Virus record (IMG/VR): IMGVR_UViG_3300025413_000008
Direction: 5' to 3' (one strand)
Source of the DNA: a virus
Lineage: Duplodnaviria; Heunggongvirae; Uroviricota; Caudoviricetes
Length of the DNA: 64,000 bases
Position 1 is the stretch's first letter. Each line of letters starts with the position of its first letter. Positions 11,256 through 56,591 of the stretch are shown in pieces. The notes under the pieces were generated by a model. That model had not been told where the DNA came from, ran no database searches, and saw nothing but the letters and a program-made list of their open reading frames with translations. Position numbers and translations under genes: made by a program.

Positions 11256-12272
11256 ATGAAAAACCTATTCAAAAAAGCAGCAGTGTTCACTGATATACAT
11301 TTCGGACTAAAGAGTAACAGCCTACAGCACAATCAAGATTGCGCAGATTTCGTTGATTGGTTTATATCAAAGGCAAAAGAGGAGGGGTGTGAAACATGTT
11401 TGTTTCTTGGTGATTGGAATCATCATAGAGCAAGTATAAACATTCACACCCTTCAATTTGGGTTACGTGCTTTAGAAAAATTAAACAATGCATTTGAGCG
11501 TGTTTTATTCATTCCGGGAAACCATGATCTTTATTACCGTGATCGCAGAGACATTCACTCGGTAGAGTGGGCATCACATCTTCCCAATATCACAATCGTT
11601 AATGATTGGTTTTGTGAAGGGAATGTTGTCATTGCGCCATGGCTTGTTGGTGATGATTATAAGAAGTTACCAAAATTAAAAGGCAAATATATGTTTGGGC
11701 ACTTTGAACTGCCAAACTTCTACATGAACGCAATGGTTCAAATGCCTGATCATGGAGAACTTAACTTAGACCATATTCAGCAATTTGATAAAGTATTCTC
11801 CGGTCACTTTCATAAGAGACAGGCAAGAAGGAACGTATGGTACATTGGAAACGCGTTTCCCCATAACTATGCGGACGCTGGTGACGATGCCAGAGGAATG
11901 ATGGTACTTGAGTGGGGAGAAGAGCCTGAGTTTCATGCATGGCCACAACAGCCGCTATTCAGAGTATACAAACTCAGTGACGTTCTGGACAATCCTGATG
12001 GGTTACTTCTTCCTAAGACAAACGTTCGTGTCCATCTTGACATTGACATTTCATATGAAGAGGCGAACTTCATTAGAGAAACTCTGATACCAACACATAA
12101 TCTTCGTGAAATGTCGCTCATTCCAATAAAGAATAGCGAGCACATTCAAGATTTAGAAACAGGTGAACTTAAGTTTGAATCAGTTGATCAAATAATTGTT
12201 GACCAAATTACCGCCATAGAGAGCGATTTCTATGATTCTAAACTTCTGTTGGCTATTTATGAGTCAATATGA
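11256..12272 (+). CDS. 47: Recombination endonuclease subunit gp47 (Mre11/SbcD-like metallophosphatase)
   Basis: Calcineurin-like phosphoesterase motifs FTDIHFG, LGDWNHH and GNHD. Adjacent to a Rad50-like gene as in T4. Confidence 0.8.
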   Translation: MKNLFKKAAVFTDIHFGLKSNSLQHNQDCADFVDWFISKAKEEGCETCLFLGDWNHHRASINIHTLQFGLRALEKLNNAFERVLFIPGNHDLYYRDRRDIHSVEWASHLPNITIVNDWFCEGNVVIAPWLVGDDYKKLPKLKGKYMFGHFELPNFYMNAMVQMPDHGELNLDHIQQFDKVFSGHFHKRQARRNVWYIGNAFPHNYADAGDDARGMMVLEWGEEPEFHAWPQQPLFRVYKLSDVLDNPDGLLLPKTNVRVHLDIDISYEEANFIRETLIPTHNLREMSLIPIKNSEHIQDLETGELKFESVDQIIVDQITAIESDFYDSKLLLAIYESI

Positions 12273-12376: not shown

Positions 12377-12496
12377 TGCTGATAGCTCCTTCTTAGCAAT
12401 TAGAGTGGGTGGGGATTGCAGTCCCGTGACTCACATTTATTTATATATTTAACAAAAACCATTGATTTATACCTAACAGGATGTTATAATACTATC

Positions 12497-14584
12497 ATGT
12501 CAATCATTCTCAAAAATATAACCCTTCGTAACTTCCTTTCAATTGGAGCAGTTACCCAAGCAGTAAATTTTGACAGCAAAGAATTAACTCTTATCATGGG
12601 TCAAAATTTAGACCTTGGAGGAGATGGTGCAAGAAATGGAACGGGCAAAACCACTCTGATACAAGGGCTGGCTTATGTTCTATTTGGTTCACCAATTAAT
12701 AGCATTCGTAAAGATAACCTTATCAACCGCACCAATGGTAAAGGTATGATGGCTACTCTTGAATTTAGTGCTAATGGGATTGACTATAAGATTGAACGAG
12801 GAAGAAAACCAAACATCCTTAGGTTCTTCGTGAATAATAGTTTACAAGAGCATAAAGACGATTCCGCTCAAGGTGAAAACAAGGAAACTCAGGCTGCAAT
12901 TGAGCGCGCTATCGGTATGTCATCCGATATGTTCAAGCATATTGTTGCTTTGAATACGTATTCAGAGCCATTCCTTGCCCTTGGTTCAGGACCACAAAGA
13001 GATATTATTGAACAGTTGCTTGGTATTACCTTGTTGTCCGAAAAGGCTAAAGCCATAAAGGATAAACTGAATGTCAATAAAGATAATATCCAGCAAGAAG
13101 AATTCAAGGTCAAGGCTATTGAAGAAGCAAACAAAAGAGTTCAGGAACAAATTGAAAGCCTAAAACGTAGACAGTCTTTGTGGATCAAGAAACATGAGGC
13201 AGATTTAAATAGTCTTGTAACAGACTATGATGAACTAAGCAAGATTGATATTGAGGCGGAATTACAATCTCATAAAGACTTCTCTGTATATCAAGAAAAA
13301 AAGAAAAAGCAAGATGCAATCAGTGCGCTCGTCGCTAGACAAGTAGCATGGAAGCAAAAGCAGTCCAAGGATATTGCTGCTCTTCAAAGCACATATGATG
13401 CTCTGAGTCATATTGATATTGATGCGGAATTACAAGCCCACAAGTCCGTTGCCGAATGGAAGCATAAAAAGGCTGATGCCGATAAGTTCAACTTGACAAA
13501 GGCGAATCTAGAAAAGAATATTATTCGCGAAACCGGAATCATCAAGAAACTTTCAGAAGAAATTGCAACTTTGGAAAGTAACAGGTGCTATGCATGTGGT
13601 CAAGATTTTCATGATGAAAATCATGTAACCGTTTTGGACGATAAAAAGGCATTGCTTGCTTCTGCACAGAACGATCTTACCCAAAACCAAAATGATTTAG
13701 AAAAAATAAAAAATGCATTAAATGATTTGAATTTGGGTAAACAGCCATCCACTCATTATAAGACTGAATCCGAGGCGATCAAACACAGTTCCGAACTTGA
13801 AAACATTCAAAATAAAATTGCTTCTAAAAACCATGAGACCGATCCCTATGCTGAGCAAATTACAGAAAATGATACCTTAGAAGCCCTCGGACCCGTTCCA
13901 AAGACTATATACGATACTGAAGCGCAGGCGATTGAACATAGATCAACCGTGCATAACCTGCTGCAACAGATTGAACGTAAGGTAGCAGAAGTTGATCCCT
14001 ATGCTGAGCAGGTTATTGAAATGGAATCTAAAGCATTACAAGAAATTGATTTTGAAAAGATCAACGAGTTGTCACGTTATGGTGATCACTTGAAGTTTCT
14101 CATGGACCTATTGACCAGTAAAGACTCATTTATTCGTAAGAAGATCATTGATCAAAACTTGTCCTATTTAAACGCAAGACTTACTCATTATCTGGATAAA
14201 ATGGGACTGCCCCATACTGTTATCTTCAAGAATGACTTGTCGGTTGAAATTACTGAACTCGGGCGTGAGTTGGATTTTGATAATTTATCACGCGGTGAGC
14301 GGAACCGACTGATTCTTGGTCTTTCGTTTGCATTTAGAGATGTGTGGGAAAACTTGTATCGTCCTATTAATACTTTGTTCATTGACGAATTGATTGACTC
14401 GGGCTTAGACTCTATAGGAGTTGAAAACGCAATGGCTGTTCTCAAAGAAATGTCTCGTAACCGCAACAAGTCAATCTGGCTCGTTTCACACAGAGAAGAA
14501 CTTGCAGGGCGTGTTCCAAGTGTTCTCAAGGTTGTCAAGGAGGCTGGGTTCACCTCATATTCCACATCAACCGATATAGAATAA
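12497..14584 (+). CDS. 46: Recombination ATPase gp46 (Rad50/SbcC-like)
   Basis: Walker A GARNGTGKTTLIQ. Long coiled-coil middle with a CxxC zinc hook (CYACGQ). C-terminal signature/Walker B-like LFIDELIDSGLD. Start moved to the Met after the track start; TTGATT-N17-TATAAT lies just upstream. Confidence 0.8.
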   Translation: MSIILKNITLRNFLSIGAVTQAVNFDSKELTLIMGQNLDLGGDGARNGTGKTTLIQGLAYVLFGSPINSIRKDNLINRTNGKGMMATLEFSANGIDYKIERGRKPNILRFFVNNSLQEHKDDSAQGENKETQAAIERAIGMSSDMFKHIVALNTYSEPFLALGSGPQRDIIEQLLGITLLSEKAKAIKDKLNVNKDNIQQEEFKVKAIEEANKRVQEQIESLKRRQSLWIKKHEADLNSLVTDYDELSKIDIEAELQSHKDFSVYQEKKKKQDAISALVARQVAWKQKQSKDIAALQSTYDALSHIDIDAELQAHKSVAEWKHKKADADKFNLTKANLEKNIIRETGIIKKLSEEIATLESNRCYACGQDFHDENHVTVLDDKKALLASAQNDLTQNQNDLEKIKNALNDLNLGKQPSTHYKTESEAIKHSSELENIQNKIASKNHETDPYAEQITENDTLEALGPVPKTIYDTEAQAIEHRSTVHNLLQQIERKVAEVDPYAEQVIEMESKALQEIDFEKINELSRYGDHLKFLMDLLTSKDSFIRKKIIDQNLSYLNARLTHYLDKMGLPHTVIFKNDLSVEITELGRELDFDNLSRGERNRLILGLSFAFRDVWENLYRPINTLFIDELIDSGLDSIGVENAMAVLKEMSRNRNKSIWLVSHREELAGRVPSVLKVVKEAGFTSYSTSTDIE

Positions 14585-14598
14585 AAAAAATACGTGCG

Positions 14599-15192
14599 TT
14601 GGTAAAAGAGATAAATCAGTATATGACATCACCACAGAAAGCAAAAGGCTCTTCATTTGAACGCGAAGTAGCAAAATTCTTATCCGAAACATACAACGAA
14701 AGTTTTATCAGAGCGCCGGGTTCAGGTGCGTATGTGGGCGGCAAGAATCAAGCTCGTAAGGAGTTCCTTCATGAGGGACAGGTTCGCAGTTTCAAGGGTG
14801 ATATCGTGCCGGGACAGTCTTTTACAAAATTCAACGCAGAATGCAAATCTTATGCAGATTTCCCATTTCATCAGTTATTAACTGGCAATTGCAAAGTATT
14901 TGATACTTGGATTGAACAGCTTATGGCAGTGGCAGACGAAGGCGATTGTAACATTCTATTCATGAAGTTTAATCGTAAAGGTCGTTATGTAGCCGTTCAA
15001 GCTAAGTATACATGGATAACCGATTATTTCACTTACTATAGTTCACCTACAGTAGGTGATTGGATATTCATTGAATTTGACCATTTTTTTAAAAACAACA
15101 AAGACTTATTTAAATCATATTCAAGCTCAACATCCAGCACCGCAGACACCATGTCAGAACCCCCATCTAATATTCTCACCCTAAACATTTAA
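14599..15192 (+). CDS. Putative Holliday-junction resolvase-like nuclease (Hjc/PD-(D/E)xK fold) with a low-complexity C-terminal tail
   Basis: GSSFEREVAKFL ... KGDIV ... ECK resembles archaeal Hjc (G.AERE ... D ... E.K). Follows the gp47/gp46 recombination genes. Confidence 0.35.
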   Translation: MVKEINQYMTSPQKAKGSSFEREVAKFLSETYNESFIRAPGSGAYVGGKNQARKEFLHEGQVRSFKGDIVPGQSFTKFNAECKSYADFPFHQLLTGNCKVFDTWIEQLMAVADEGDCNILFMKFNRKGRYVAVQAKYTWITDYFTYYSSPTVGDWIFIEFDHFFKNNKDLFKSYSSSTSSTADTMSEPPSNILTLNI

Positions 15193-15239
15193 TCTAATAT
15201 CTAGCCCATTTAAACCTAACACAAAACCAACCCCACATT

Positions 15240-15700
15240 GATGTCTGGTGTACGTTCGTAGACCCTCCTTGAGGAAGCAGGATTTAAACCCCCTGTAGTC
15301 CGGATTCTGGAGTATGCCTGACCGAGAGGTCAGTGCCAGATTCAACATAGTCTGGTGGATGTTGATAGTAATATCAACCGCAAAACACTACACATCAATT
15401 GGTGTGTTGATTTGTGTTTAGGAATACCGACAGGGCAATCGTTAGTAGACGAACCCTGAATGAGTCTGTACCCTGTTTATCTCGTGGGAACAGAACATGC
15501 GTTGCCGAGGGGTCGGAAAGACCGATAGCCTCACTACACCTCCATAAATACCTTACAGGGCAACCGGTGGCGGTCAACAGCGATTAAAAGGCTAGTTGAC
15601 CGGGAGAGAGATAATAATGAATGACGGCCATGGCAAGTTGTAAATTAGTAGTGCTTTCTTACGGAAGCACTACTATGTCTTCAAACCGGCAATGCTATTT
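15240..15700 (+). ncRNA. Candidate structured non-coding RNA or cis element. Strand and ends are uncertain.
   Basis: No ORF longer than 60 aa on either strand from 15193 to 16092. GNRA-capped hairpins include ctgacc-GAGA-ggtcag (15318-15333) and gttgata-GTAA-tatcaac (15361-15378). A 10-bp hairpin lies at 15647-15674. Confidence 0.2.
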
Positions 15701-16092
15701 AAGAAGCACCTAAATGATCATTACTCTTCTTAAGAATAATAAAAAATAATCTAAAAAAATCAATTCTGAAAGAAATGAAAACGAACAAAGTGAGTTTTCA
15801 GATGAACGAAGTTCATCAATCATATTGAAACAATTGATGAACTTCTTATGGATTCCGGATAGAAATAATTAGAAGAATGGCATTTGAGTTTTTTTAGTAA
15901 CTTCGAGATTGCCATCAATTACTTCTTGTATTGCACCCCTCTCAGATTCAGACATATTGAGAATATCTTCGTATGATACCCCACCACGCATATACCAAGA
16001 CAGCGTTAATGCTGATTTCTTTACTGCCGCGACATCCTTTTCATATCCTTCTAGCAGCTTTCTAATCTCTTCGGGCTTAGAGTTTAGAAGCC

Positions 16093-17076
16093 TTACACGA
16101 AAAAATCTGATGGATTTAAAGTAAATGGTTGAGTGTATTCATGGTTACATTGTGGGCATTGCATGTTGAGAGGTTTAATTTCTCCTGCTTCCTTCAGTGA
16201 AGCATTATAATCTCTAAGTTTAACAAATAAATTTCTATCACAATTTTTTAAAAAATCAAGAATGAAAGTTTTATCTGTTACCTTTGTAGCAGGAGTTTGA
16301 ATATACTCAATAGTAGATGATAATAGTTCAAGAGTTAATGTTGTAATTTTTTCTAGCGCAGCATGACTTTTTTCGTCTCTTTCTTTTGCGTCTTCAATCA
16401 TGGTAATACTTGAAAACTCTCTCTGAATTTCAAATTGCTTCAATGAAACATCGTTTATTTCTCTATACGTGAGTGGTCTAAACTTTACATTTAGGTCTCC
16501 CGTATCATACAATGTGTTATAATCTGACACACCAAGAGTTGATAACATTCCCATGAGATTTACGCCAAATTTGGTTTCTTCGTCGCATCCGGGACAAGTA
16601 GTTTCAATTTCCATGTCTCCTGAACTACCCGCTGCTTTAATACCAATTAAAATTGCATCCAAATCAACATTAGTAACTGACCATGGGTCCTTGATATTTG
16701 GAATACAACTTCTAATCAATTCCGCAACGGCAGAACCGTTAAACAATGCATCAGGTGTTCTTGCCGTAATCTCGTCAATTGCAGTCATTGGGTATACTGG
16801 AAGTTCTCCCGTTTCTGGCATATCAATTGCACCAACAGGATACCCTATGCCACCACTCGGTAATTTAATATGAACAGTTGGTCTTCTAAAATATTGACGA
16901 AGTGGGTTAACATCTGATGGTGGTACTTGTGTTGGATTCATCGTCTGTGGTATAGGTGAATTTACAAATTGATCTGTTGTGTTTGTAGGTAGATCATTAT
17001 AAATTGGAGTGAATCCGGCTACTGGGATTCCCATATTTGTATTCTGGGTAGGTGGAATAGGAATGTTATTGTCCAT
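16093..17076 (-). CDS. Hypothetical protein with paired CxxC zinc-ribbon motifs, possibly a baseplate-hub assembly factor
   Basis: Contains CPGC...CPQC. Transcribed divergently from the tape-measure-like gene. A minus-strand ATAAATAC motif lies about 55 nt upstream. Confidence 0.4.
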   Translation of the reverse strand: MDNNIPIPPTQNTNMGIPVAGFTPIYNDLPTNTTDQFVNSPIPQTMNPTQVPPSDVNPLRQYFRRPTVHIKLPSGGIGYPVGAIDMPETGELPVYPMTAIDEITARTPDALFNGSAVAELIRSCIPNIKDPWSVTNVDLDAILIGIKAAGSSGDMEIETTCPGCDEETKFGVNLMGMLSTLGVSDYNTLYDTGDLNVKFRPLTYREINDVSLKQFEIQREFSSITMIEDAKERDEKSHAALEKITTLTLELLSSTIEYIQTPATKVTDKTFILDFLKNCDRNLFVKLRDYNASLKEAGEIKPLNMQCPQCNHEYTQPFTLNPSDFFV

Positions 17077-17170: not shown

Positions 17171-20100
17171 ATGGATATTGATCCAAATTTGTTGGAAGAT
17201 TTCAATGAGCAATTGCGACAGATGACTGACCTTATGGGACAGAATAATTCTGTTATGTCTTCGTATTTAAAGAGTCTTAATGATCTTACATCATCTACAT
17301 CTGACAGTACAAATGCTACGCAAAAAAATACTACTGCCAATAATAACGCATCACAGGCAGCACAAGACTTGGCAAATGCTGAAGAGTATTCTGCAAGAAA
17401 GATAAAAGAGGCACAAGCTAATCTTGAACTTTCATTTAGGTATGCATCCACTGGATTATTAGGGTTTGGTAGTGCGGCACTCAGTGGTAAAGAAGGGTTA
17501 GAAAAATATTCTGGATCATTAACTAATGCCGGAGTTGCTGCATCTAAGATTGCTGAAAACTTTGGACTACTAGGCACAGCAGTTGGCTTAGCTATCCAAG
17601 CACTTACTAAATTTGGCGCTGATGCGTTAAAATTAGTAGATCAAACTACAAATTTTAGAGACGAATTAGCAAAATCTACTGGTGTTGTTACTACCTCTTT
17701 AGAAAATATTGACCGATTCTCACGGGAAGCGAAATTTTCTGGAGAAAGAATGGCTATTCTTCAGAAAGCTACCAGTGGTCTAGGAACAAGTCTTACTGCG
17801 TTAGGTGGTTCTGCCGATCAGGGTGCCACCCAATTTATGAAAATGGCCTCATTGGGCAAAGATGCTGACGAAACCCGTAAACGATTTGGTATGATGGGCA
17901 TCTCACAAGAACGCTTAATAGACATGCAATCCAAATATATAGATTTGCAGGGTAAATCGGGTTCCGCATATGCATTGCAGCACATGACAATGGGACAATT
18001 ACAGAAACAGTCATTAGAATACGTAGAAAATTTAGCGCGAATGTCATCACTAACTGGTGAAAGTGCTGATAAATTACAATCCGACCGAGATTCTCTTGCT
18101 TCCACCCAAGCAGTGCAATTGGGACGCCGCCGAGAAATGCTTGATTTACAAGAAATAGGTAAGACTCAAGGAATTAAATCACAGGCATATCAAGATAAAT
18201 TAAAAGAAGTCAATGATCACGAAAAAATGTTGAGTTCATTGTCTGATAGATTTGGCGCAAAACAGGCTGCTGCTCTTGGTGAATATATGTATCAAGGCAT
18301 CAGTAAAAATAATGCATCACAAGTAGTTGGCTCTCCGGAAGTATTAACAGCCATAGATCGTGCTAAATCTGGTCAATTGTCTCCGGATCAGTTTGATTCA
18401 GCAGCAGTAAATGCAAGAAATGCTGCTGAAAATAGATTTGCATACAATCCTGGTGTAATGTACGGGGATAATCCGGAAAATTTAGGTTTTGATTTAGATA
18501 CACTTAAGAAATCCAATATTGGCTTAAGTGATAAAAATGCTGAGCAGACGAAAAAAGAATACGATGATCGCGTAAAATTAATAACTGATACAAATAAAAA
18601 CCCAATGGCATCTGGTGATGAAGATTTAAAGAGGCGCGAAAGAAATTTACAATCTTCTTATCAAGAGGGATTGGAAAAATTGATACACTTATTAGGTCCT
18701 CTTGGCTTAACGGGAGCAACTTTAGCGGCTACAGCCGCATTGTGGGGACTTAGTGGCGCAGCGGTGTTGGGCATTGGTCGCGGTGGATTGTTTGGAAGTA
18801 TTGGTAATAGACTTTTTGGTAATATGGGCGTAAAAGCCGCAGGCGCAGCAGAGGGGATCGGTGGAGCAGCAGAGGGGATCGGTGGAGCAGCAGAGGGGAT
18901 CGGTGGAGCAGGATTATTAGCATCTGGTGCAGAAATGGAAGCAGGTGGTGTTGCCGCAGATGCCACTGGTGTTGGGGCACCAGTTGGGATAGGAATGAAT
19001 ATTCTGGGTGCGGGCATGATGCTTGGTGGTGCTGGATTAATGGCATATAATTGGCTAACAGGAAGTGGCGATAATTCATCAGCACAACCAACAACGGCAT
19101 CCACATCAGATCAAGAAACTCCTCAAACCCCCGATATAACACGTGATAACGATAACCAAGATAGTGGAGGGAGTGTTGATCAATCCGCTATAGACGCAAG
19201 AATGCAAAATACCAGTGGAGGAGGACTGATAGCAGCATTCAGACGTTTGAATGAGTCTATAAATCGTCTCACACAAAGCGTAGATACGCTGTCAGAGCGG
19301 TATGGACAAGATAAAACCGAAGAAGAAGGAGGAGGAGGAGGAGGAGGAGCAGGAGGAGGAACACCAGCCGGTAACAGTGCAAATGCAGCCGAAGCAATGA
19401 AATTTTTTATTGGACAAGGATGGACAAAAAATCAAGCTGCTGGGATAGTAGGAAATCTACAGCAAGAATCTGGTGCCAATCTTGATCCAAACATTAGTAA
19501 TAGTATTGGTATGTATGGTATTGCTCAATGGGATACTTCCAGAAGAAAAGAATTTGAGAAAATTTATGGTAAATCAATATATGGTTCTAGCTTTGAAGAC
19601 CAACTGAAATATGTACAATACGAGCTAACAAATGGAAATCGTAAGGCAGCAGGGGATAGATTAAAACAAGCATCAAATGTAAATGATGCAGCGTCAATAG
19701 TTACTCGTTTATATGAAGGTGCGGCAGGACAGGATGATGCTAAAAGAATTGCTAATGCCCAAGCTCTTGCACAAAATACAGATACTAAACAAACAAATTT
19801 TGGCGGATTGTTTGGTGGTCTGCCCGGAATCGGAGGAGGATTTGGTTCAGAATATAACATAGACCCCGCAAATGCTGCACAATATATTAATTTTAGTGGG
19901 GCATCAGGTGGACTGCAAAACCTTAATGGACTCCAACCAAATGTAAAAGCTGCACTAATAAGAGCAGCGCAGCAGTATTATCAACAAACAGGTAGAAAAC
20001 TAACACTAAACAGCGGCGCGCGCTCACTTCAGGATCAACAGCGTTTATGGGACAATAGAGCTAATAATCCAAATCCAGTTGCGCCTCCTAATCCAAATTC

Positions 20101-21772
20101 ACCTCACGTGAGAGGTTCTGCCGTGGATATTGCTGAGTACAATAATCCTGCTGCATTAAATGCGTTACATTCTGCGGGCTTATATCAAACAGTAAGAGGT
20201 GATCCCGTACACTTTGCTTTACAAGCAGCTAACGGTGGTTTGTTCTCTGGTCCAGACTCTGGTTATCCCGCACTATTACACGGCACAGAAATGATTGTTC
20301 CAGTAGACAATGCTCAGCATAGGGCAGGTAGCAAACTAGAAGAACTTAACAATTACACTAAATCGGAAACATTAAAGCAATTTAGTAAAGTTGCTGATCC
20401 TGACACGACAAGACAGATGAAAGATTTGATGAATAGGAATTCATCTGTTTCAGGTCAGGGCGGAACACAGATTTATGATCCAGCCGCAGATAGAAATCTA
20501 AGATTAGCTACTGATGATAACAATCTTCTTAAAGAAATACGAGACGGCATCAACAAAATGCACGGTATTACTAACAAAAATGCAACTGAAAAAGCATCTA
20601 AAAAAAGTAAATCTACAGGTAGCAAAAATAAATCTGGAAAAGGCTATTTTGAACGGCATCCAACGAGAGCAGGTCCTGCTGCATATCTAGGTACTAAATT
20701 GCTCAGCCCGTTTCTCAGTAAAATTTCCTCTGCTACTGGTAAAGTTTTTTCTGCTGCTAAATCTAAATTAGGTTCCCTGAGCGAAATGCTTTTTGGAAAA
20801 ACTATCAAGCCTATCCCGGCAGAAGGAAGAGTAATAGATGGTGTTCGTGTTGGTGGAGGATTTAGAGCAGAAGCAACTCCTAATAGTCCATTAGGCAAGG
20901 CATTATTACAAAAAGAAGCAGAAGAATCAAAAGGGCTTTTACCTAAATTAGCTGAAAGAATTAGTACATTAACAAAAACCTCATTTGCAAGATTATCTGG
21001 CGCGGGAGAAAGCGTAAGCTTAGCAGCAAGTAAAGCATTTGAACCCATAACCCGAATGGCTAGTAAAATAACAGGACCTGTCGGGAAGTTAGTAGCGAAA
21101 GCTGGCGGCGGACTTGCTGGCGGAATATCTGGTATTTTCTCGGGATACGAAGAATATTCTGCTGATAAAAAGAAAGGTAATTCAACTAAAACTTCACTCA
21201 AAAAAGCTGGCACAGTTGGAACAGGTGCGGCAGTGGGTGCAGGCATTGGTGAATTAGCAGGCGGGACACTTGGATCATTGATTGGACCTGTTGGCACCGT
21301 ACTTGGCGCTACTGCCGGTGGTGCAATAGGTAGTTGGCTAGGAGAAAAGGGCGGCAAACTACTCGCTGATTATATGGTAAAGGATGATGCTAAGAAAAAA
21401 GCTACAGTGCATCCAATAAAGCATCCAATAAAGCATGAAGAAAATTCTGAATATATTAGAGATTTCAAAATACAACGTCAGCCCAGACTTCAATTGGCTG
21501 TTGCAACGCCATCTTTTGATAATTCTATAAATTCATATAGCCCTGCCAATACGTCTAGTAAAATCGGTAGGGAACAAAATACTCCACATAATATTGAACA
21601 GCATCGTCCTCAGGAGTATGTACAAAATCAACAAAATAATGAAACTTCAAGACATTTTGAAAAACTTAATGGAACAATGGAATCACAGTCTGCTAAGATA
21701 GATTATCTACACCGAGCGCAACAGGAAACTAATAATCACTTAGCTGCAATATATCGTCATATACGTGAGTGA
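17171..21772 (+). CDS. Giant tail tape-measure/hub-like protein (1533 aa) with a lysozyme-like tail-lysozyme domain and an M15 (VanY/LAS) peptidase motif
   Basis: Coiled-coil N-terminus with hydrophobic and Gly-rich segments. FIGQGWTKNQAAGIVGNLQQESG...GMYGIAQW is phage tail-lysozyme-like. SPHVRGSAVDI matches the H-x-x-G-x-A-x-D zinc peptidase motif. Contains 21-bp x3 and poly-GGA repeats. Confidence 0.5.
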   Translation: MDIDPNLLEDFNEQLRQMTDLMGQNNSVMSSYLKSLNDLTSSTSDSTNATQKNTTANNNASQAAQDLANAEEYSARKIKEAQANLELSFRYASTGLLGFGSAALSGKEGLEKYSGSLTNAGVAASKIAENFGLLGTAVGLAIQALTKFGADALKLVDQTTNFRDELAKSTGVVTTSLENIDRFSREAKFSGERMAILQKATSGLGTSLTALGGSADQGATQFMKMASLGKDADETRKRFGMMGISQERLIDMQSKYIDLQGKSGSAYALQHMTMGQLQKQSLEYVENLARMSSLTGESADKLQSDRDSLASTQAVQLGRRREMLDLQEIGKTQGIKSQAYQDKLKEVNDHEKMLSSLSDRFGAKQAAALGEYMYQGISKNNASQVVGSPEVLTAIDRAKSGQLSPDQFDSAAVNARNAAENRFAYNPGVMYGDNPENLGFDLDTLKKSNIGLSDKNAEQTKKEYDDRVKLITDTNKNPMASGDEDLKRRERNLQSSYQEGLEKLIHLLGPLGLTGATLAATAALWGLSGAAVLGIGRGGLFGSIGNRLFGNMGVKAAGAAEGIGGAAEGIGGAAEGIGGAGLLASGAEMEAGGVAADATGVGAPVGIGMNILGAGMMLGGAGLMAYNWLTGSGDNSSAQPTTASTSDQETPQTPDITRDNDNQDSGGSVDQSAIDARMQNTSGGGLIAAFRRLNESINRLTQSVDTLSERYGQDKTEEEGGGGGGGAGGGTPAGNSANAAEAMKFFIGQGWTKNQAAGIVGNLQQESGANLDPNISNSIGMYGIAQWDTSRRKEFEKIYGKSIYGSSFEDQLKYVQYELTNGNRKAAGDRLKQASNVNDAASIVTRLYEGAAGQDDAKRIANAQALAQNTDTKQTNFGGLFGGLPGIGGGFGSEYNIDPANAAQYINFSGASGGLQNLNGLQPNVKAALIRAAQQYYQQTGRKLTLNSGARSLQDQQRLWDNRANNPNPVAPPNPNSPHVRGSAVDIAEYNNPAALNALHSAGLYQTVRGDPVHFALQAANGGLFSGPDSGYPALLHGTEMIVPVDNAQHRAGSKLEELNNYTKSETLKQFSKVADPDTTRQMKDLMNRNSSVSGQGGTQIYDPAADRNLRLATDDNNLLKEIRDGINKMHGITNKNATEKASKKSKSTGSKNKSGKGYFERHPTRAGPAAYLGTKLLSPFLSKISSATGKVFSAAKSKLGSLSEMLFGKTIKPIPAEGRVIDGVRVGGGFRAEATPNSPLGKALLQKEAEESKGLLPKLAERISTLTKTSFARLSGAGESVSLAASKAFEPITRMASKITGPVGKLVAKAGGGLAGGISGIFSGYEEYSADKKKGNSTKTSLKKAGTVGTGAAVGAGIGELAGGTLGSLIGPVGTVLGATAGGAIGSWLGEKGGKLLADYMVKDDAKKKATVHPIKHPIKHEENSEYIRDFKIQRQPRLQLAVATPSFDNSINSYSPANTSSKIGREQNTPHNIEQHRPQEYVQNQQNNETSRHFEKLNGTMESQSAKIDYLHRAQQETNNHLAAIYRHIRE

Positions 21773-41920: not shown

Positions 41921-42367
41921 ATGATTAACGTATTCTTATCGGATTTTTATACCCGGCTGCGATCTTGGCACGCTCTTAAAGAAAAATTAACAGAAGCGGA
42001 CTTACAAACTATATGCGTTGAGGTTGACAACTTCTGGCAAAGATGCCCCATAACACCTCACTATCTTCACCCGGCAGACATTGAAGATTGGCCAAATCCA
42101 TGGGAATTGCTCAAAGACAATGACTACTGTCACTATGGCAGAGCACTCGGAATGATCTACACATTATTGCATTTGGGTATCAAAAACATTGACTTAGTGG
42201 ACGCAATAGACTATTGTGATGAACATGCTGTATTAGTCTTAGTTGACGACGCAAAATATGCGCTTAACTACTACCCCAACTCAGTGTTAAATATAGACCT
42301 AACTGAATTTAAAATCACAAGATTTATTGACATAAAACCATTAACAAAGAAAACAGGTAAAGAATGA
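41921..42367 (+). CDS. Hypothetical protein (148 aa)
   Basis: ORF that overlaps the nrdA start. Confidence 0.35.
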   Translation: MINVFLSDFYTRLRSWHALKEKLTEADLQTICVEVDNFWQRCPITPHYLHPADIEDWPNPWELLKDNDYCHYGRALGMIYTLLHLGIKNIDLVDAIDYCDEHAVLVLVDDAKYALNYYPNSVLNIDLTEFKITRFIDIKPLTKKTGKE

Positions 42368-44685
42368 TTAACGTAACCAAACGATCAGGAAAAGTCGTAC
42401 CACTGGACTTAGAAAAGTGGCAAGCACAGATTACAAAAATTTGTGCAGGAATAGCAGATGTAAGCCAGTCAATGGTAGAAATTAAAGCACAACCAAACTT
42501 TTTTGATGGCATTACTACTAGAGAAATTGACCAAATCACACTAAGAGCAGTAGTTGATTTGATTGACGCAGAGTCTAATCCTGACGTAGGTCACACTAAT
42601 TATCAGTATGTTGCCGGGAAACAGAGATTGTCTATGCTTCGCAAGGATGTTTATGGACAATTTGATCCTCCTCACCTATATGATATTGTAAAGAAAAACA
42701 TATCTGTTGGACTTTATACGCCTGAACTCCTAGAATGGTATTCTGAGGATGAATGGAACAAAATGAATGATATTATTGATCATTCAAAAGACGAACAGTA
42801 TTCATATGCGGCAGTTGAGCAACTTATTGAAAAATATCTTGTTCGCAATAGAGCCACTAAAGAAATTTATGAAACGCCTCAAGTCAGATATATTATTGCA
42901 GCAGCAACGGTCTTTCATAAAGAAGAGCCAAACACTGCAAGAATGCGCTATGTAAAAGATTACTATAATGCTGCTTCTGATGGTTTATTCACTTTGGCTA
43001 CTCCTGTTCTTGCTGGTCTTGGTACTCCCACAAAGCAATTCAGCAGTTGTGTTCTTATTCGTAGCGATGACGATCTGGACTCAATTTTTGCTTCAGGACA
43101 AATGATGGCCAAGTATGCCGGTAAACGTGCTGGCATTGGACTAGAAATTGGAAGACTTCGCTCGCTTGGATCACCTATTCGTGGCGGCGAAATTATGCAT
43201 ACTGGCATGATTCCCTTTCTTAAGAAATGGTTTGGCGATTTACGATCTTGCTCACAGGGTGGCATTCGTAATGCTTCATGCACAGTTTGGTTTCCTATTT
43301 GGCATCATCAATTTGACGATCTTATAGTGCTTAAGAATAATCAGGGAACAGAAGAGACCCGAGTCCGCCACATGGATTACGGAGTGGTTCTATCAGGTTT
43401 CTTCTGGCGAAGATTTAAGAACAAAGAGAACATCACCTTCTTTGATCCTAACGAAGTTCCTGACCTTTATGAGGCGTTCTATTCAAACACTGCTAAATTT
43501 GAAGAACTCTACGTAAAGTATGAAAAGCGTAAGGATTTACGCAAGAAGGTAATGAGTGCCGAAGAAGTCTTCAAGAGCGGCCTTCTCAAGGAGCGTACAG
43601 ATACTGGTCGCATATATTTAATGAATATAGATAATGTGATGAATCAAGGTCCATTTGATCCTGAATATCACAGTATCTATCAGAGCAATCTCTGTGCAGA
43701 AATAACCTTACCATCACGCCCATTTAAGAATCTTGAAGATGAAAATGGCAGAATTTCCCTTTGCACTCTTGGTAGTATAAATTGGGGAGCATTTAGAAAT
43801 CCAGAAGATATGCGTAGAGCATGTCGTCTTTTGCTGCGTAGTCTGAATAACATTCTTGACTATCAAGACTTTCTATCTATCCAGTCAAAACTTTCCAATG
43901 ATGAAATTCGGCCTATTGGCATCGGGATCACCAACCTTGCATACTGGCATGCCAAGCGCGGATTGAAATATGGAGAAAAGGATGCGTTACAGGAAGTCAA
44001 GTCTTGGATTGAACATCAAACATATTATTTGATGGAAGCTAATGTTGAACTTGCCAAAGAACGCGGTAAATGTATTGACTCTGATAAAACTCGTTATGGT
44101 CAGGGAATTTTTCCATGGGAACTTCGCGCAAAGGGTGTAAATGAATTAGCCGATTTCACACCTGAACTTGATTGGGAAACCCTACGTGAAAACATGAAGC
44201 AATACGGCGTTCGCAATACTACTGTTGGAGCAATCGCACCAGTTGAATCATCATCGGTTGTTATTAATTCAACCAATGGCATCGCAATGCCAATGAGTTT
44301 AATATCCATCAAGGAATCAAAGGCAGGATCGTTTGTTCAGGTAGTTCCCGATTATCATATACCCAAGGTTCGTAAGAACTATCAATTGATGTGGGAACAG
44401 ACGGACTGTGTTGGATATCTAAAGACAGCAGCGGTACTGGCTGCATACATAGATCAGTCCATATCTACTGATACTTTTTATTCTCCTAAGCATTTTCCTG
44501 ATCGTAGGGTTCCTACTACGCTTATTGCAAAAAATTTAATGCTATTCGCCAAATGGGGTGGAAAAACAAATTATTATAGTCTTATTGATAAGCGGGGGTC
44601 CAAAGAAGAAGCCGATGACGCACCTGGCATGTTAGAACCTATTGACTTTGATGATGACGGGGATTGCGAGAGTTGTAAGTTGTAG
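42364..44685 (+). CDS. nrdA: Ribonucleotide reductase class Ia large subunit NrdA
   Basis: N-terminal ATP-cone-like region. Active-site NLCAEI. C-terminal Cys pair DGDCESCKL. Confidence 0.85.
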   Translation: MINVTKRSGKVVPLDLEKWQAQITKICAGIADVSQSMVEIKAQPNFFDGITTREIDQITLRAVVDLIDAESNPDVGHTNYQYVAGKQRLSMLRKDVYGQFDPPHLYDIVKKNISVGLYTPELLEWYSEDEWNKMNDIIDHSKDEQYSYAAVEQLIEKYLVRNRATKEIYETPQVRYIIAAATVFHKEEPNTARMRYVKDYYNAASDGLFTLATPVLAGLGTPTKQFSSCVLIRSDDDLDSIFASGQMMAKYAGKRAGIGLEIGRLRSLGSPIRGGEIMHTGMIPFLKKWFGDLRSCSQGGIRNASCTVWFPIWHHQFDDLIVLKNNQGTEETRVRHMDYGVVLSGFFWRRFKNKENITFFDPNEVPDLYEAFYSNTAKFEELYVKYEKRKDLRKKVMSAEEVFKSGLLKERTDTGRIYLMNIDNVMNQGPFDPEYHSIYQSNLCAEITLPSRPFKNLEDENGRISLCTLGSINWGAFRNPEDMRRACRLLLRSLNNILDYQDFLSIQSKLSNDEIRPIGIGITNLAYWHAKRGLKYGEKDALQEVKSWIEHQTYYLMEANVELAKERGKCIDSDKTRYGQGIFPWELRAKGVNELADFTPELDWETLRENMKQYGVRNTTVGAIAPVESSSVVINSTNGIAMPMSLISIKESKAGSFVQVVPDYHIPKVRKNYQLMWEQTDCVGYLKTAAVLAAYIDQSISTDTFYSPKHFPDRRVPTTLIAKNLMLFAKWGGKTNYYSLIDKRGSKEEADDAPGMLEPIDFDDDGDCESCKL

Positions 44686-44693
44686 AGGCTAGA

Positions 44694-45383
44694 ATGGTGA
44701 TAAATACAGTTGCCGATCACGATACTGATAATATCTACCGGCTCTATAACACTGAGGAGTTACAGCAAATGTATTTAGATAATATTCCTGCCTATGTCTA
44801 TTATATTAGACATATACCTACTGGCAAGTTTTACTATGGTTCCAGATATAATCATATAAAGAAAGGCACATTGCCTGAAGATGATCTTTGGACATCATAT
44901 TTCTCATCTTCTAAAGAAGTGAAAAAGTTGATACAAGAAACAGGGAGCAGTTCGTTTGAAACTGTGATATTGTTTAAGGACTCAAATCCCGAACTTTGTT
45001 TTGAGTTTGAACAAAATATCATTAAAGAATATATAGCAGACACACTATGTATCAACAAACGATACTTCAATACCGCTAGTGGCAAATCATCATATTGTGT
45101 ATTCGGAAAAACTTTGTCATCAAAAGGAAAACCGAAAACAGAAGAAACTAAACAGAATATGAGAAAACCAAAATCAGTGTCTCATAAAGAAAACATTAGA
45201 AAAGCACAACTCGCAAACGGGGGCAATGGACCAAAGAACCACAGCGAAGAGTCAAAGTTGAAAAATGGAGACACGCACAGGCTTTTGATACGAGAAAAAG
45301 TAACTTGTCCGCATTGTAACAAAACGGGCGGCGCAATCGCAATGCCAAGATGGCATTTTGATAACTGTAAGGAAAAGAAGTAA
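44694..45383 (+). mobile_element. GIY-YIG homing endonuclease inserted between nrdA and nrdB
   Basis: AYVYYIRHIPTGKFYYGSRYN contains GIY and YIG. C-terminal CPHCNKTGGAIAMPRWHFDNCK. This is the position where T4 carries mobE. Confidence 0.65.
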
Positions 45384-45386
45384 ATC

Positions 45387-46520
45387 ATGTCTAAAGATCA
45401 ATACAATATCAGTAACGTTCCTAACTATCTAAAACGAAAGATGTTCTTGGATGGTGTAGTGACTGTTCAGCGATTTGAAGAATATCGTCAGCCCAAGCTT
45501 GCTAAGTTTGAAGAAATGCAGCGTGGATTTTTTTGGGTTCCCGAAGAAGTTAATTTATCTAAGGATGCCGGAGATTTTAAAGATTCCAGCGATACTGTAC
45601 GTCATATCTTTACTGCTAACTTATTGAGACAAACTGCATTAGATAGTATTCAAGGCCGCGCCCCGGTACAAATATTCTCTCCTGTTTGTTCTATTCCAGA
45701 ACTGGAATCATTGGTTTTAATATGGTCATCATTCGAAACAAATATTCACAGTCGCTCGTATTCACACATTATTCGCAATATCTACAATGTGCCGAAAGAA
45801 GTATTCAACACTATCCATGACACTCAGGAAATCATTGATATGGCTGCTAGTGTAGGTAAGTATTATGACGATTTACATGTGCTGAATTGCCGCAAGGAAC
45901 TGGTAGACAACTTTACAGGAGGCAATAAAGCTTGGGCAGATGCTATGGCCGTTCCTGAACAAGAGCACATTAATGCTATTTGGTTGGCACTTCATGCCTC
46001 CTATGCACTTGAAGCATTCCGCTTCATGGTATCATTTGCGACATCACTGGCAATGGTTGAGAATAAGATTTTCATGGGCAATGGTAACATCATCAGCTTG
46101 ATCCTACAGGATGAACTTCTACATAAAGAATGGACTGCTTGGATGATCAATCAGGTTGTCAAGGAAGACCCGCGATTCGTAACTGCTAAGACTACGTGCG
46201 AACAGGAAGTGCGAAAGATTTACGAAGATGTTATTCGTGAAGAAAAAGAATGGGCAAAATATCTTTTCAAAAAGGGTCCAGTTATCGGACTTAATGAACG
46301 CATCATGGTAGATTTTGTTGATTATAATGCAGTAGATGCTCTTAAACAGATCGGTATGAAATACTGGAATCCGGCACCAAAATCTACACCTATTCCATGG
46401 TTTAACAAGCACATGGACACATCTAAAAAGCAAACTGCCTTGCAAGAGTCAGAAAGCACATCATATGTTATTGGTATTATGTCTGACGTTCTTGACTACG
46501 ACGAACTTCCTGATCTTTGA
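45387..46520 (+). CDS. nrdB: Ribonucleotide reductase small subunit NrdB
   Basis: Ferritin-like di-iron protein directly following nrdA and the endonuclease. Carries E..H and HKEW-type motifs. Confidence 0.7.
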   Translation: MSKDQYNISNVPNYLKRKMFLDGVVTVQRFEEYRQPKLAKFEEMQRGFFWVPEEVNLSKDAGDFKDSSDTVRHIFTANLLRQTALDSIQGRAPVQIFSPVCSIPELESLVLIWSSFETNIHSRSYSHIIRNIYNVPKEVFNTIHDTQEIIDMAASVGKYYDDLHVLNCRKELVDNFTGGNKAWADAMAVPEQEHINAIWLALHASYALEAFRFMVSFATSLAMVENKIFMGNGNIISLILQDELLHKEWTAWMINQVVKEDPRFVTAKTTCEQEVRKIYEDVIREEKEWAKYLFKKGPVIGLNERIMVDFVDYNAVDALKQIGMKYWNPAPKSTPIPWFNKHMDTSKKQTALQESESTSYVIGIMSDVLDYDELPDL

Positions 46521-46567: not shown

Positions 46568-47359
46568 ATGAAGAATGGTAACAGCGTAATCCTCAATACA
46601 ATTATTGAGGATTTGCGAGACGCGGATGGTGTTGTGATTCTTGCAGGAGCAGGCATGGGCGTAGATTCTGGTATTCCAGATTTTAGGGGAAACTCTGGAA
46701 TCTGGACAGCAGAGAAAGATGCATTCATCAAATATGCAACTGCTGACAGTTTTCATAATGCCCCATTAGACTCTTGGAACTTTTACATAAACAGATTTCT
46801 TATGTATAGTGAACTCTCACCTCATCGTGGGTATTATGAATTATTAAAATTGCCAAAAGATATTTTTGTCATAACTAGTAATGTGGATGGGCATTTTATC
46901 AAAGCAGGATATGATCGTGACAGACTATATGAAATTCATGGAAACTTAGAATATGTTCAATGTAGCCATGGATGTTGTGCAGATATTAAGCCTATGCCAA
47001 AATTTACACAAAAACTAACCCACATAGATGAAATACCAACGTGTCCACGCTGTCTTGCGGTATACCGACCATTAGTAATGATGTTCAATGATCCATGGTT
47101 TATTCCCTATAAGGTCAATGAGCAGGAACGCAATTATCTGAACTGGGAAAAGGATAAGAAAAAAATTATCGGGATTGAAATCGGTGCAGGTTTGGCAGTT
47201 CCAAGCATAAGAATGATGGGTGAAGAAAGAACAGACAGATTAATTCGTATCAACCCACATGATTATGCCATTAATCGTGCTTCTGATGTGTCAGTGCCAA
47301 CCGGAGCATTGAATGGAATTGATGTGGTTATGAAATTATTTAACGGAGAAATAGAATGA
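46568..47359 (+). CDS. Sir2-family NAD-dependent protein deacylase (sirtuin)
   Basis: GAGMGVDSGIPDFRG (canonical sirtuin NAD-binding motif). Catalytic HG. Zn-ribbon cysteines CSHGCC...CPRC. Confidence 0.7.
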   Translation: MKNGNSVILNTIIEDLRDADGVVILAGAGMGVDSGIPDFRGNSGIWTAEKDAFIKYATADSFHNAPLDSWNFYINRFLMYSELSPHRGYYELLKLPKDIFVITSNVDGHFIKAGYDRDRLYEIHGNLEYVQCSHGCCADIKPMPKFTQKLTHIDEIPTCPRCLAVYRPLVMMFNDPWFIPYKVNEQERNYLNWEKDKKKIIGIEIGAGLAVPSIRMMGEERTDRLIRINPHDYAINRASDVSVPTGALNGIDVVMKLFNGEIE

Positions 47360-53336: not shown

Positions 53337-54176
53337 ATGAAAAAGTTACTGACGGTATTTGTGATGCTATTAGCATTATCGGTATCATTTACAACACCAT
53401 CATTTGCATGGAATCAGAGAGCACCTCTCCCACTTCAGCAATGTTCAATCCACGCACCTTTTGGTGCACCACAGTCTTCTCGTCCAGTAGAATTTATCTG
53501 CCGCGAAGCATATCTCGTGGGATTTGATCCCACTTCAAAAATTCCAGAATATGTTCAATGGACACTTACTCCACAGGCTGCATTGGGATGTGTGCCTCGT
53601 TCAAATGCATTTGCTACTGATATGAGCATTCAAGGAAGTGCAACTCCACAGGACTATGCAAGAACGGGTTACGACAAGGGACACATGGCACCAGATGGTG
53701 ATCAGTCGTGGAACCCGCAAGTTGAACTTGAATCATTTCTGATGACTAACATGACGCCACAGGCAGGTTCGTTAAACCGTGGTATTTGGAAATTACTGGA
53801 AACGTCATTTCGTGGTTGGGTATTTCAACAAAATCGTCCATTTACCGCAATTTCTGGTGCAATTTATGGACCATCTGATAAACGTATCGGAACTGGCGTG
53901 GTAGTGCCGCATGCGTTCTACAAGATTGTTATTGATGATCAAACTGGTTATGTTGCTGGGTGGTATTTCCCACATGTTGCACCATACCCCAATCTTGGTA
54001 ATGATTTAACTCGTTATCGTAGATCAATCGCGCAGATTGAACAAGAATCTGGTGTTCGTTTTGGGCTTCCAAACAATGCACAGGAAGTTCCTGTTGGTAA
54101 AGAATGGAGTGTAAATTTTGGTGCACTCACACAGTCCAAAAAAGCCAAGTGTGGCGCAAACGCATCTATTGACTAA
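53337..54176 (+). CDS. Secreted non-specific DNA/RNA endonuclease (Serratia NUC family)
   Basis: Signal peptide MKKLLTVFVMLLALSVSFTTPSFA. DKGHMAPDGD matches the DRGH beta-beta-alpha-Me catalytic motif. Confidence 0.6.
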   Translation: MKKLLTVFVMLLALSVSFTTPSFAWNQRAPLPLQQCSIHAPFGAPQSSRPVEFICREAYLVGFDPTSKIPEYVQWTLTPQAALGCVPRSNAFATDMSIQGSATPQDYARTGYDKGHMAPDGDQSWNPQVELESFLMTNMTPQAGSLNRGIWKLLETSFRGWVFQQNRPFTAISGAIYGPSDKRIGTGVVVPHAFYKIVIDDQTGYVAGWYFPHVAPYPNLGNDLTRYRRSIAQIEQESGVRFGLPNNAQEVPVGKEWSVNFGALTQSKKAKCGANASID

Positions 54177-56516: not shown

Positions 56517-56591
56517 GCGTGTGTAGTATAATGGTTATTACAAGTCACTCTAAACGATGGAATGAGAGTTCAATTCTCTCCACACGCACCA
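56517..56591 (+). tRNA. tRNA-like element (possible tRNA gene or pseudogene; the anticodon arm is not canonical)
   Basis: 7-bp acceptor stem gcgtgtg/cacacgc. U8, A14 and a GG in the D-loop. Perfect T-arm gagag-TTCAATT-ctctc. Discriminator A plus an encoded CCA. The anticodon stem pairs poorly. Confidence 0.3.

Follow-up and report, generated by a model that had tools for sequence, protein, structure and literature searches.

Between the recombination genes and the baseplate-hub genes of IMG/VR virus record IMGVR_UViG_3300025413_000008 (Caudoviricetes), analysed here as a stretch of 64,000 nucleotides that we call the window, lies a 900-bp segment (positions 15193-16092) that appears to contain the gene for a large RNA of a previously undescribed class. 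Judged by comparative analysis, the + strand of 15236-15697 is a structured non-coding RNA, ~460 nt long in the window and 365-390 nt in most relatives, apparently always at the same locus and in a single clade of T4-core jumbo phages; the window itself comes from such a phage. A first-pass annotation had treated the 900 bp as one ORF-free, hairpin-rich feature, for which a structured small RNA, an origin of replication or pac-like site, or a degenerate tRNA/intron cluster were considered. The segment instead consists of three separate features, namely, a gene for the RNA, an AT-rich spacer (15701-15868) carrying two probable terminator hairpins, and a stretch of coding sequence that extends the adjacent hub gene. 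The G+C content is 0.45-0.49 in the proximal part and 0.265-0.33 in the distal AT-rich part, compared to ~0.36 in the surroundings. The suggestion of a structured RNA has held for 15236-15697, where both covariation and three pseudoknot helices are found, except that the RNA is not small: it is a multi-domain molecule of 365-470 nt.

To collect homologs, IMG/VR was searched with the resolvase and hub proteins encoded on either side of the segment, yielding 43 loci. In 36 of them the intergenic DNA is conserved at 65-82% identity (blastn). A DNA pattern made from three invariant stretches retrieved at least 119 viral loci, some of them on contigs of 244-524 kb, and another pattern, made from different motifs, contributed at least 35 further loci, all of which score with the RNA profile. 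The nhmmer profile matches 147 of 163 sequences (162 loci and the window); 136 matches are full-length, with 99 distinct sequences among them, and the match in the window spans 15234-15697. All matches listed from the pattern scans of viral sequences belong to the same clade, and the locus counts are lower bounds.

The + strand of 15236-15700 folds at -160.3 kcal/mol compared to -129.8 +/- 6.3 kcal/mol for dinucleotide shuffles (z = -4.85; none of 100 shuffles is as good). The complementary strand reaches -138.9 kcal/mol (z = -3.44), leaving the + strand 21 kcal/mol better. Comparison with related phages, which the first-pass annotation had proposed as a check, revealed that pairing is kept by compensatory changes. 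RNAalifold predicted 79 pairs for 21 sequences, and compensatory changes are seen in 50 of these pairs. When pseudoknots are included, the alignment of 21 sequences (A1) has 83 pairs in 13 helices, which are 95.9% paired versus 84.2% in shuffled alignments; 51 of the 83 pairs have changed on both sides versus 29 in shuffles, and none of 500 shuffles attains either value. Sliding the 3' partners as a control lowered pairing to 31-41% and the number of changed pairs to 8-15. Mutual-information analysis of the 99 distinct sequences recovered all the hairpins together with the long-range helices PK1, PK2, H8 and Pa described below. Our own model for the same 99 sequences comprises 95 pairs, with 89.8% of cells canonical and double changes in 62 pairs. 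G·U accounts for 5.8% of the cells of this model and A·C for 1.5%, an approximately fourfold excess that assigns the RNA to the + strand. The locus therefore displays what is generally expected of a structured RNA: compensatory pairs in excess of both shuffled and slid controls, and G·U pairs specific to one strand.

The same data speak against a conserved element at the level of DNA and against a protein-coding region. Long-range pseudoknots are meaningless for duplex DNA, so the proposal of an origin or pac-like site found no support: what is conserved are RNA pairs, and GC skew, for which an analysis had been suggested, shows no inflection at the region, being cumulatively monotonic across the window, although 64 kb alone is a weak test of skew. 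Variation along the RNA lacks 3-base periodicity (phase entropies of 0.82, 0.83 and 0.85; period-3 power ratio of 0.19). Taken together, covariation, pseudoknots and the missing periodicity exclude a DNA-level site as well as a coding region. A pac site, origin iterons, a recombination hotspot or a hidden gene with a recoded stop codon is thus scarcely conceivable here, even though the window encodes a suppressor-type CUA tRNA (56517-56591) and the region does contain short palindromes. Compensatory RNA pairs, the one-strand G·U bias and the long-range pseudoknots effectively refute such explanations; furthermore, no repeated iterons were noted, and each frame contains all three stop codons.

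Neither could the RNA be assigned to a known family. A search of the whole window at Rfam 15 gathering thresholds returned only the tRNA at 56517, and ARAGORN likewise found this one tRNA (56517-56591) in the window, with no tRNA or tmRNA in 15193-16092. Lowering the stringency to E<=10 over 14900-16400 produced three chance matches (mir-3047, snR40 and OTKONC), none of which lies in the conserved RNA. An insertion-free relative (L013:1340-1760, 421 nt) produced no matches at the same threshold. There was no Rfam match to the large RNAs GOLLD, ROOL, OLE, raiA or HEARO. The first-pass annotation could not fold the region into tRNAs or a group I intron core. Its notion of a degenerate tRNA/intron cluster found no support: ARAGORN and Rfam are empty there, no gene is interrupted, and both J8/7 and the P7-P3' adjacency of group I introns are absent. 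The RNA is therefore best regarded as a candidate new class of large RNA.

The consensus structure consists of hairpins and local helices H1-H10 and of the long-range helices Pa, PK1 and PK2; consensus positions 118, 244 and 261 used below correspond to 15425, 15552 and 15569 in the window (all elements on the + strand). The 5' hairpin H1 (15247-15264) is variable in sequence with its pairing kept, compensatory changes being present in all seven pairs. It is followed by the H2-H3 domain (15265-15312), in which H2 pairs the invariant CUCC (15265-15268) with GGAG (15309-15312). H2 is 100% paired with double changes being rare. Conservation of CUCC/GGAG concerns the sequence itself and goes beyond pairing alone. 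H2 encloses H3 (15273-15301), in which all nine pairs covary, and the domain also includes a conserved internal loop, UUGA/GAUCU. We note that the invariant CUCCUUGA (15265-15272), with its CUCCUU, resembles the anti-Shine-Dalgarno end of 16S rRNA, and that the invariant GGAG with which it pairs resembles a Shine-Dalgarno sequence.

The next domain, 15313-15421, at the position of H4, is peripheral and variable in the alignments. Only in the window and two relatives (L002 and L003) is it enlarged by ~90 nt into four hairpins, while other lineages have a single hairpin or a different insertion at this position; consistently, query positions 142-228 are deleted in most relatives according to blastn. 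The two GNRA hairpins reported in the first-pass annotation, CTGACC-GAGA-GGTCAG (15318-15333) and GTTGATA-GTAA-TATCAAC (15361-15378), are both present as described. However, they belong to this lineage-specific insertion and lie outside of the conserved core. Such peripheral expansions restricted to individual lineages are typical of large RNAs.

The core begins with an invariant GGAA followed by the 5' strand of Pa, UACCG (together 15421-15429), which pairs with CGGUR at 15565-15569. Pa comprises four invariant Watson-Crick pairs and one covarying pair, 118-261 (TA48, CG20, AT12, TG10). The hairpin H5 (15431-15458) has a conserved internal loop, GC.AUCG/GCGAAC, separating an outer helix, 99.8% paired with three of five pairs covarying, from an inner helix that is 100% paired. 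All eight pairs covary in the hairpin H6 (15460-15498), the loop of which (UUAUCU, 15477-15482) forms PK2 with AGAUAA (15609-15614), located on the strand after H8; the PK2 covariation includes 171-304 (TA56/CG43), 173-302 (GC52/AT45) and 175-300 (CG78/TA19). PK1 joins GUUGCC (15501-15506) with GGCAAC (15559-15564) and covaries at 199-252 (CG86/TA13) and 200-251 (CG39/TA26/TG11). Pa, H5, H6 and PK1 meet in a four-way junction; here a single uninterrupted 3' strand (15559-15569) pairs with two separate 5' strands. H7 (15507-15532) is a hairpin of variable length, with double changes in all four pairs in A1. Between H7 and the 5' strand of H8 lies a single-stranded ACUACA (15533-15538), invariant in the 21 protein-retrieved sequences. 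H8 (15540-15606) pairs CUCC (15540-15543) with GGAG (15603-15606) and covaries at 234-296 (TA55/CG24/AT10/GC4) and 235-295 (CG85/TA8). It crosses both PK1 and Pa, resulting in an H-type double pseudoknot, and encloses the hairpin H9 (15571-15602; 8 of 10 pairs covary). Nucleotides that are invariant and unpaired at the junctions are GGAA, AAUGAG, UGCG and ACUACA.

Downstream of the pseudoknotted core is the near-invariant hairpin H10 (15642-15678), which corresponds to the 10-bp stem of the first-pass annotation; the long stem is indeed present, at 15646-15676. H10 is flanked by a direct repeat, R1 (UGGCAAG, 15631-15637) and R2 (CGGCAAUG, 15687-15694), with the common sequence GGCAAK. The two copies change in parallel between lineages, GGCAAU, GGUAAU, AGUAAU, GAUAAU, GGUGAA, GUUGAA, AGCAAU, GGCAGR and GGCAUG being found in both. 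A consistent complement of R1/R2 was not detected inside the RNA or within +/-3 kb, and neither was a third copy. The 5' strand of PK1 is the sole recurrent complement, but it does not track the variant repeat types and was rejected as a partner. Position 261 displays Watson-Crick covariation not only with 118 (91% canonical) but also with 244 (100% canonical), 118 and 244 being usually identical. This three-way covariation suggests either a base triple or alternative, mutually exclusive pairings.

A mini-hairpin motif, CAGAC-ACCNN-GUC(A), precedes H1 by ~80-95 nt; its position in the window is 15144-15156 (+), inside the sequence encoding the resolvase C-terminus. The motif is kept at the nucleotide level despite protein change (GUC...GAC in L013), is also present in the non-coding sequence of L029 and L030, and has three copies in L026. 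It may belong to a 5' extension of the RNA, or function as a processing site or promoter element for it. No further copy of the mini-hairpin motif was found in the window. The CAGACACCAUGUCA motif was considered as a phage promoter and rejected, as it does not recur in the window.

Based on these features, we consider it likely that 15236-15697 (+) is the gene for an undescribed large non-coding RNA working in trans as a folded, catalytic or protein/ligand-binding molecule. The RNA would be transcribed together with or just after the SbcD-SbcC-resolvase genes, which are on the same strand, and transcription coming from these recombination genes would end in the AT-rich spacer and its hairpins, ahead of the hub gene, which is convergent. 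In its size, its several pseudoknots and its invariant nucleotides at the junctions, the RNA looks like ribozymes and ribonucleoprotein scaffolds, and for this reason a ribozyme or the core of a ribonucleoprotein would be the most likely form of action. As R1 and R2 are identical rather than complementary, we infer that a single external partner could recognise both of them as equivalent sites. A bolder and rather doubtful version of the same idea is a new large ribozyme or RNA-guided machine of this giant-phage clade, which would have its active or protein-binding centre in the pseudoknotted core and programmable recognition sites for external nucleic acid in R1/R2, that is, two equivalent substrate or guide sites, or polymerase jump sites.

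Several points weigh against a trans-acting RNA gene or limit its definition. Part of the sequences was fetched with patterns containing the conserved motifs, so that the invariance of GCGUUG, ACUACA and CAACCGGU among the pattern-derived loci is by construction and is independent solely in the 21 protein-retrieved sequences. A helix closing the 5' and 3' ends ("P1") was considered, since complementary stretches occur in many sequences, but energies of cognate duplexes are no better than those of non-cognate ones; with this helix statistically unsupported, the exact ends of the RNA are uncertain. Consensus scans for sigma70 promoters and terminators revealed nothing specific for the + strand. 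Pfam searches of 30 ORFs detected no reverse transcriptase, Cas, RNA ligase, RNA-processing or obvious RNA-binding gene in the 64-kb window. Finally, a catalytic or ligand-binding activity cannot be inferred from sequence, and the RNA might instead act in cis.

The gene order in relatives is SbcC, resolvase and RNA, followed by the hub extension and the hub gene in the opposite orientation, and a same-strand resolvase is found upstream of the RNA in nearly all of them. With tblastn no resolvase is detected in three loci (L029, L030 and L109), all of which keep the RNA. This persistence where the upstream resolvase has been replaced indicates that the RNA is an independent unit not tied to the resolvase. 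The place of the resolvase in L030 (7699-8142) is occupied by an ORF of 147 codons that looks GIY-YIG-like by eye (...YRITEISTGMEYVGKK...), and L029 has a corresponding region; the ORF suggests that homing endonucleases may pass through this locus.

Outside of the clade the RNA was not found. It is absent from more distant relatives of the hub locus (L037-L043), though both the hub gene and its extension are present there. There is no blastn match to the intergenic element among 50,697 cultured phage records, and nhmmer detected no homology to the RNA profile in the syntenic regions of PA5oct, Phosso and SCTP-2. PA5oct has four non-coding RNAs (ncRNAs) defined by RNA-seq, all of them elsewhere in its genome (PMC7318152); the two that were compared, ncRNA001 and ncRNA002, have no homology to the window RNA according to nhmmer. 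In a pattern scan of bacterial and archaeal genomes none of 120 sequences, among the matches listed, scored with the RNA profile, and these matches are chance occurrences at the level expected, by our estimate, in 596 Gb.

The RNA is followed by an AT-rich, poorly conserved spacer (15701-15772; G+C 0.265-0.33). The palindrome TTCTTAAGAA (~15726-15735) pointed out in the first-pass annotation is there but is not conserved in relatives. Beyond it are two conserved hairpins (15773-15818, - strand), GAAAAC-GAACAAAGUGA-GUUUUC and GAUGAAC-GAA-GUUCAUC, the second being the other palindrome noted earlier (GATGAAC-GAA-GTTCATC, 15802-15818). Hairpin stems of the spacer covary in relatives (GAAAAC/GUUUUC, UAUACC/GGUAUA, UAGACC/GGUCUA). 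On the minus strand the hairpins lie between the stop codon of the hub extension, which precedes them, and a U-rich tract (AUUUCUUUC in the window, AUUUUUCUAC in L031). They are probably the terminator of the convergent hub transcript and may act in both directions. Their stems are AT-rich, and the consensus terminator scan did not list them. The first hairpin (15773-15795) has an 11-nt loop, GAACGAAGUGA, which is conserved while the stem covaries, an unusual property for a plain terminator. A 16-bp inverted repeat specific to the window (15806-15849, - strand) overlaps the second conserved hairpin and accounts for the spurious mir-3047 match in Rfam.

This arrangement is relevant to whether the RNA might act in cis, as a 3'-UTR element that blocks 3' exonucleases and stabilises the mRNA 3' end or that governs whether polymerases from the recombination operon read into the convergent late hub gene and make antisense RNA, with alternative pairings serving as a switch. 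The RNA invariably closes the SbcCD-resolvase block at its 3' end, with the hub gene oriented towards it, and alternative conformations would fit both the pairing of position 261 with 118 as well as 244 and the duplication of R1/R2 around H10. Nevertheless, we regard a cis element as unlikely: ~370 nt with three pseudoknot helices and invariant junctions greatly exceeds the needs of known terminators, antiterminators and exoribonuclease-resistant elements, the RNA persists after the upstream gene has been swapped, and 70-100 nt of unconserved AT-rich spacer separate it from the probable terminator hairpins.

The spacer could also be taken for the unwinding element (15700-15770) of a replication origin primed by the RNA, similar to RNA II of ColE1 or to oriF/uvsY of T4. 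The R-loop transcript of T4 oriF/uvsY adjoins T4 genes 25/26, and the position of the RNA between recombination genes and a gp26 homolog is comparable to that of ori(uvsY). The AT-rich tract (G+C 0.265-0.33) is immediately downstream, and phage Phosso has an RNase HI gene in the equivalent region. A primer transcript is nonetheless very improbable, given that GC skew has no inflection, that the spacer is conserved neither in sequence nor in length, and that PA5oct, Phosso and L037-L043, although related, are entirely without the element; in addition, primer RNAs are not known to require such pseudoknotted cores.

The remaining ~224 of the 900 bases (15869-16092, - strand) are coding. The statement that the region is ORF-free is correct for 15193-15868 but not for this part, which falls inside a conserved minus-strand frame of 89 codons from stop to stop (15869-16138; ...FFRVRLLNSKPEE...WYMRGGVSYEDILNMSESERGAIQEVIDGNLEVTKKTQMPFF*) that lacks a usable start codon. 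ORFs with canonical starts inside the region do not exceed 60 aa, and there is additionally a 71-aa ORF on the + strand (15909-16124) that runs out of the region. The minus-strand frame is in the -1 register relative to the gp26-like hub gene, and we propose that it encodes a C-terminal extension of the hub protein, ~75 aa long, added via programmed -1 frameshift. The proposed site is a slippery heptamer, U_UUU_UUC (GAAAAAA when read on the + strand; 16098-16104, - strand), which precedes the hub stop codon by two codons. The first-pass annotation had allowed for a conserved protein missed due to a sequencing frameshift. A conserved protein is indeed found in the distal 224 bp, but the frameshift is conserved and apparently programmed rather than a sequencing error.

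The extension ORF lies beside the hub gene in all loci (tblastn), and every relative conserves its protein sequence. T_TTT_TTC occurs in 103 of 103 unique loci as listed, 102 of which were recovered by regular-expression re-extraction. The hub gene ends with the codon pair TTT TTC and then a stop, with GAT TTT TTC GNN TAA in nearly all of the 103 loci, and the -1 frame is open across the heptamer in all of them. The distance from the hub stop codon to a WYMRGG motif is 32 codons in nearly all motif-positive loci and 29 in two. Start codons of the extension are inconsistent, and in the window and about a dozen loci the only canonical one lies past the motif. PA5oct has the same heptamer and -1 ORF, the latter in a 224-nt unannotated gap after the hub gene. 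Phosso also has the heptamer, its -1 ORF being annotated as a separate 77-aa gene with an ATG overlapping the hub stop codon. A conserved X_XXY_YYZ heptamer is thus combined with an open, conserved -1 ORF without a start of its own, as expected of programmed frameshifting. RNAalifold found no consensus stimulatory structure downstream of the heptamer. A conserved complementarity, GGCUUCU...AGAAGCU, begins 6 nt past the heptamer and is inseparable from conservation of amino acids.

A conserved -1 frameshift in tail assembly genes of long-tailed phages has been described (Xu, Hendrix & Duda 2004, cited in PMC9024508). The hub gene resembles the G/GT system of lambda in having an X_XXY_YYZ heptamer shortly before the end of a gene for tail/baseplate assembly, in its -1 ORF without own start, which is predicted to give a minor, C-terminally extended product, and in adjoining a tape-measure-like gene (17171-21772). 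It differs in that the gene is a T4 gp26-type hub and not a recognised tail assembly chaperone, in being divergent from, rather than upstream of, the tape-measure-like gene, and in having no consensus stimulatory structure predicted. These results suggest that these T4-core phages possess the conserved tail-assembly frameshift of other long-tailed phages, and they correct the annotation of many jumbo phages, including PA5oct.

Upstream of the RNA are genes for SbcD (11256-12272), SbcC (12416-14584) and a PDDEXK_15/T5 D14-like "RusA-like" resolvase (14599-15192; Pfam PF24608, 1.8e-26; phrog_244), all on the + strand. The resolvase is the last gene of this block, and the RNA begins ~45 nt past its stop codon. 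On the other side are the gp26-like gene of the baseplate hub (16093-17076, - strand; Pfam PF12322 T4_baseplate, 1.2e-12; phrog_150), which is convergent to the RNA, and a gene for a 1533-aa tail-lysozyme/tape-measure-like protein (17171-21772, + strand). Further genes in the window encode the gp20 portal, gp21 protease, gp23 capsid protein and ribonucleotide reductase. By protein similarity the closest cultured phages, at 30-45% identity, are the jumbo phages Phosso, Atu_ph07, PA5oct, SCTP-2 and the Rak2-like group.

A few other observations concern the rest of the window. The tRNA at 56517-56591 (+), labelled "Pyl" by ARAGORN and scoring 55.6 bits with the Rfam tRNA model, has a CUA anticodon, which reads UAG, and TAG is the rarest stop codon among long ORFs of the window (3 of 47). 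A gene for a SegE-type GIY-YIG endonuclease (44694-45383, +) is located between the genes of the large (42364-44685) and small (45387-46520) subunits of ribonucleotide reductase. Pfam also identified a Sir2-family protein, a non-specific DNA/RNA endonuclease and a RimK-like ATP-grasp enzyme (46568-47359, 53337-54176 and 59515-60408, all on the + strand).

Taken together, the distal half of the segment appears ordinary and already explained, by a probable terminator and by a coding extension that was missed because of the programmed frameshift, while the proximal half would be more than the first-pass annotation supposed, namely, a new class of large RNA. Large folded RNAs of bacteria and phages are rare. 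The earliest known, rRNA, RNase P RNA, group I and II introns and tmRNA, are ribozymes or cores of essential ribonucleoproteins, and the later ones, OLE, GOLLD, ROOL and raiA, are still being worked out, with surprises that include RNA-only cages. The window RNA adds a further class of large complex RNA to this set and would offer an initial way into RNA-based functions of uncultured jumbo phages. It is also tractable: the locus is fixed in a clade of 250-520-kb phages that has been sampled well, over 100 natural variants are available, the RNA is only ~370 nt, and its well-defined pseudoknots are open to mutation and restoration.

Of the known large RNAs, RNase P RNA and tmRNA, which are sometimes carried by huge phages, are comparable in size, in long-range helices, in multiple pseudoknots and in invariant junction nucleotides. 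The GGAAUACCG and ACAG..CCGG sequences of the window RNA bear a faint resemblance to the CR-I and CR-V motifs of RNase P RNA. On the other hand, neither family is matched in Rfam at E<=10, there is no tRNA-like acceptor or T-arm and no supported 5'-3' terminal helix, and, in contrast to tmRNA, there is no conserved tag reading frame, the alignments having no conserved stop or frame.

The likeness to the core of group I introns is in topology. The order PK1 5' strand, H7, ACUACA, H8 5' strand, PK1 3' strand, H9 and H8 3' strand corresponds to P3, P4/6, J6/7, P7, P3', P8 and P7', and the P3-P7 pseudoknot with P8 between P3' and P7' has its counterpart in covarying helices (PK1, 195-200/251-256; H8, 234-237/293-296; H9). 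The window RNA also has peripheral GNRA hairpins. A very divergent known ribozyme, most plausibly with a group I-like core and secondarily of the RNase P type, might be argued for from this match of the double-pseudoknot helix order to P3/P7/P8 and from the homing endonucleases that such phages carry, exemplified by the SegE-like gene in the window and the GIY-YIG-like ORF in L030. In group I introns J8/7 of ~6-7 nt, a P3' strand directly after P7 and a P4-P6 domain are expected. Here, however, 0-1 nt separates H9 from the H8 3' strand where J8/7 should be, 13 nt lie between the H8 5' ("P7") and PK1 3' ("P3'") strands, the P4-P6 domain is reduced to the single hairpin H7, and Pa and PK2 are extra helices without group I counterparts. 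Rfam has no match to RF00028 (Intron_gpI), GIR1, RNase P RNA or any other relevant family at E<=10, including on the 421 nt of the insertion-free relative. Moreover, there is no interrupted gene: a conserved C-terminus and a stop codon complete the resolvase, and no + strand ORF that could be an exon is found downstream. In the absence of an interrupted gene and of J8/7, with the 13-nt gap, one hairpin for P4-P6 and two extra helices, the RNA was not filed as group I, and membership in a known ribozyme class appears quite improbable.

With respect to source and evidence, the closest precedent is the IMG/VR survey of candidate structured RNAs of viruses (Fremin et al. 2023, PMC10690425), which likewise relied on covariation in viral intergenic regions. 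The candidates reported by that survey are only 29-151 nt long, so the window RNA is not described there as a whole, and at most fragments of it could be.

In overall character the window RNA is most readily set beside GOLLD and ROOL. It matches neither Rfam model, is not located beside tRNA genes and seems limited to one clade and one fixed locus. ROOL is ~580 nt and GOLLD 800 nt long, and the window RNA, at 365-470 nt, is smaller than both. Yet, like them, it is a large (>350 nt), multi-domain, pseudoknotted, phage-borne non-coding RNA with a conserved core and variable peripheral hairpins, known only from comparative genomics of mostly uncultured sequences.

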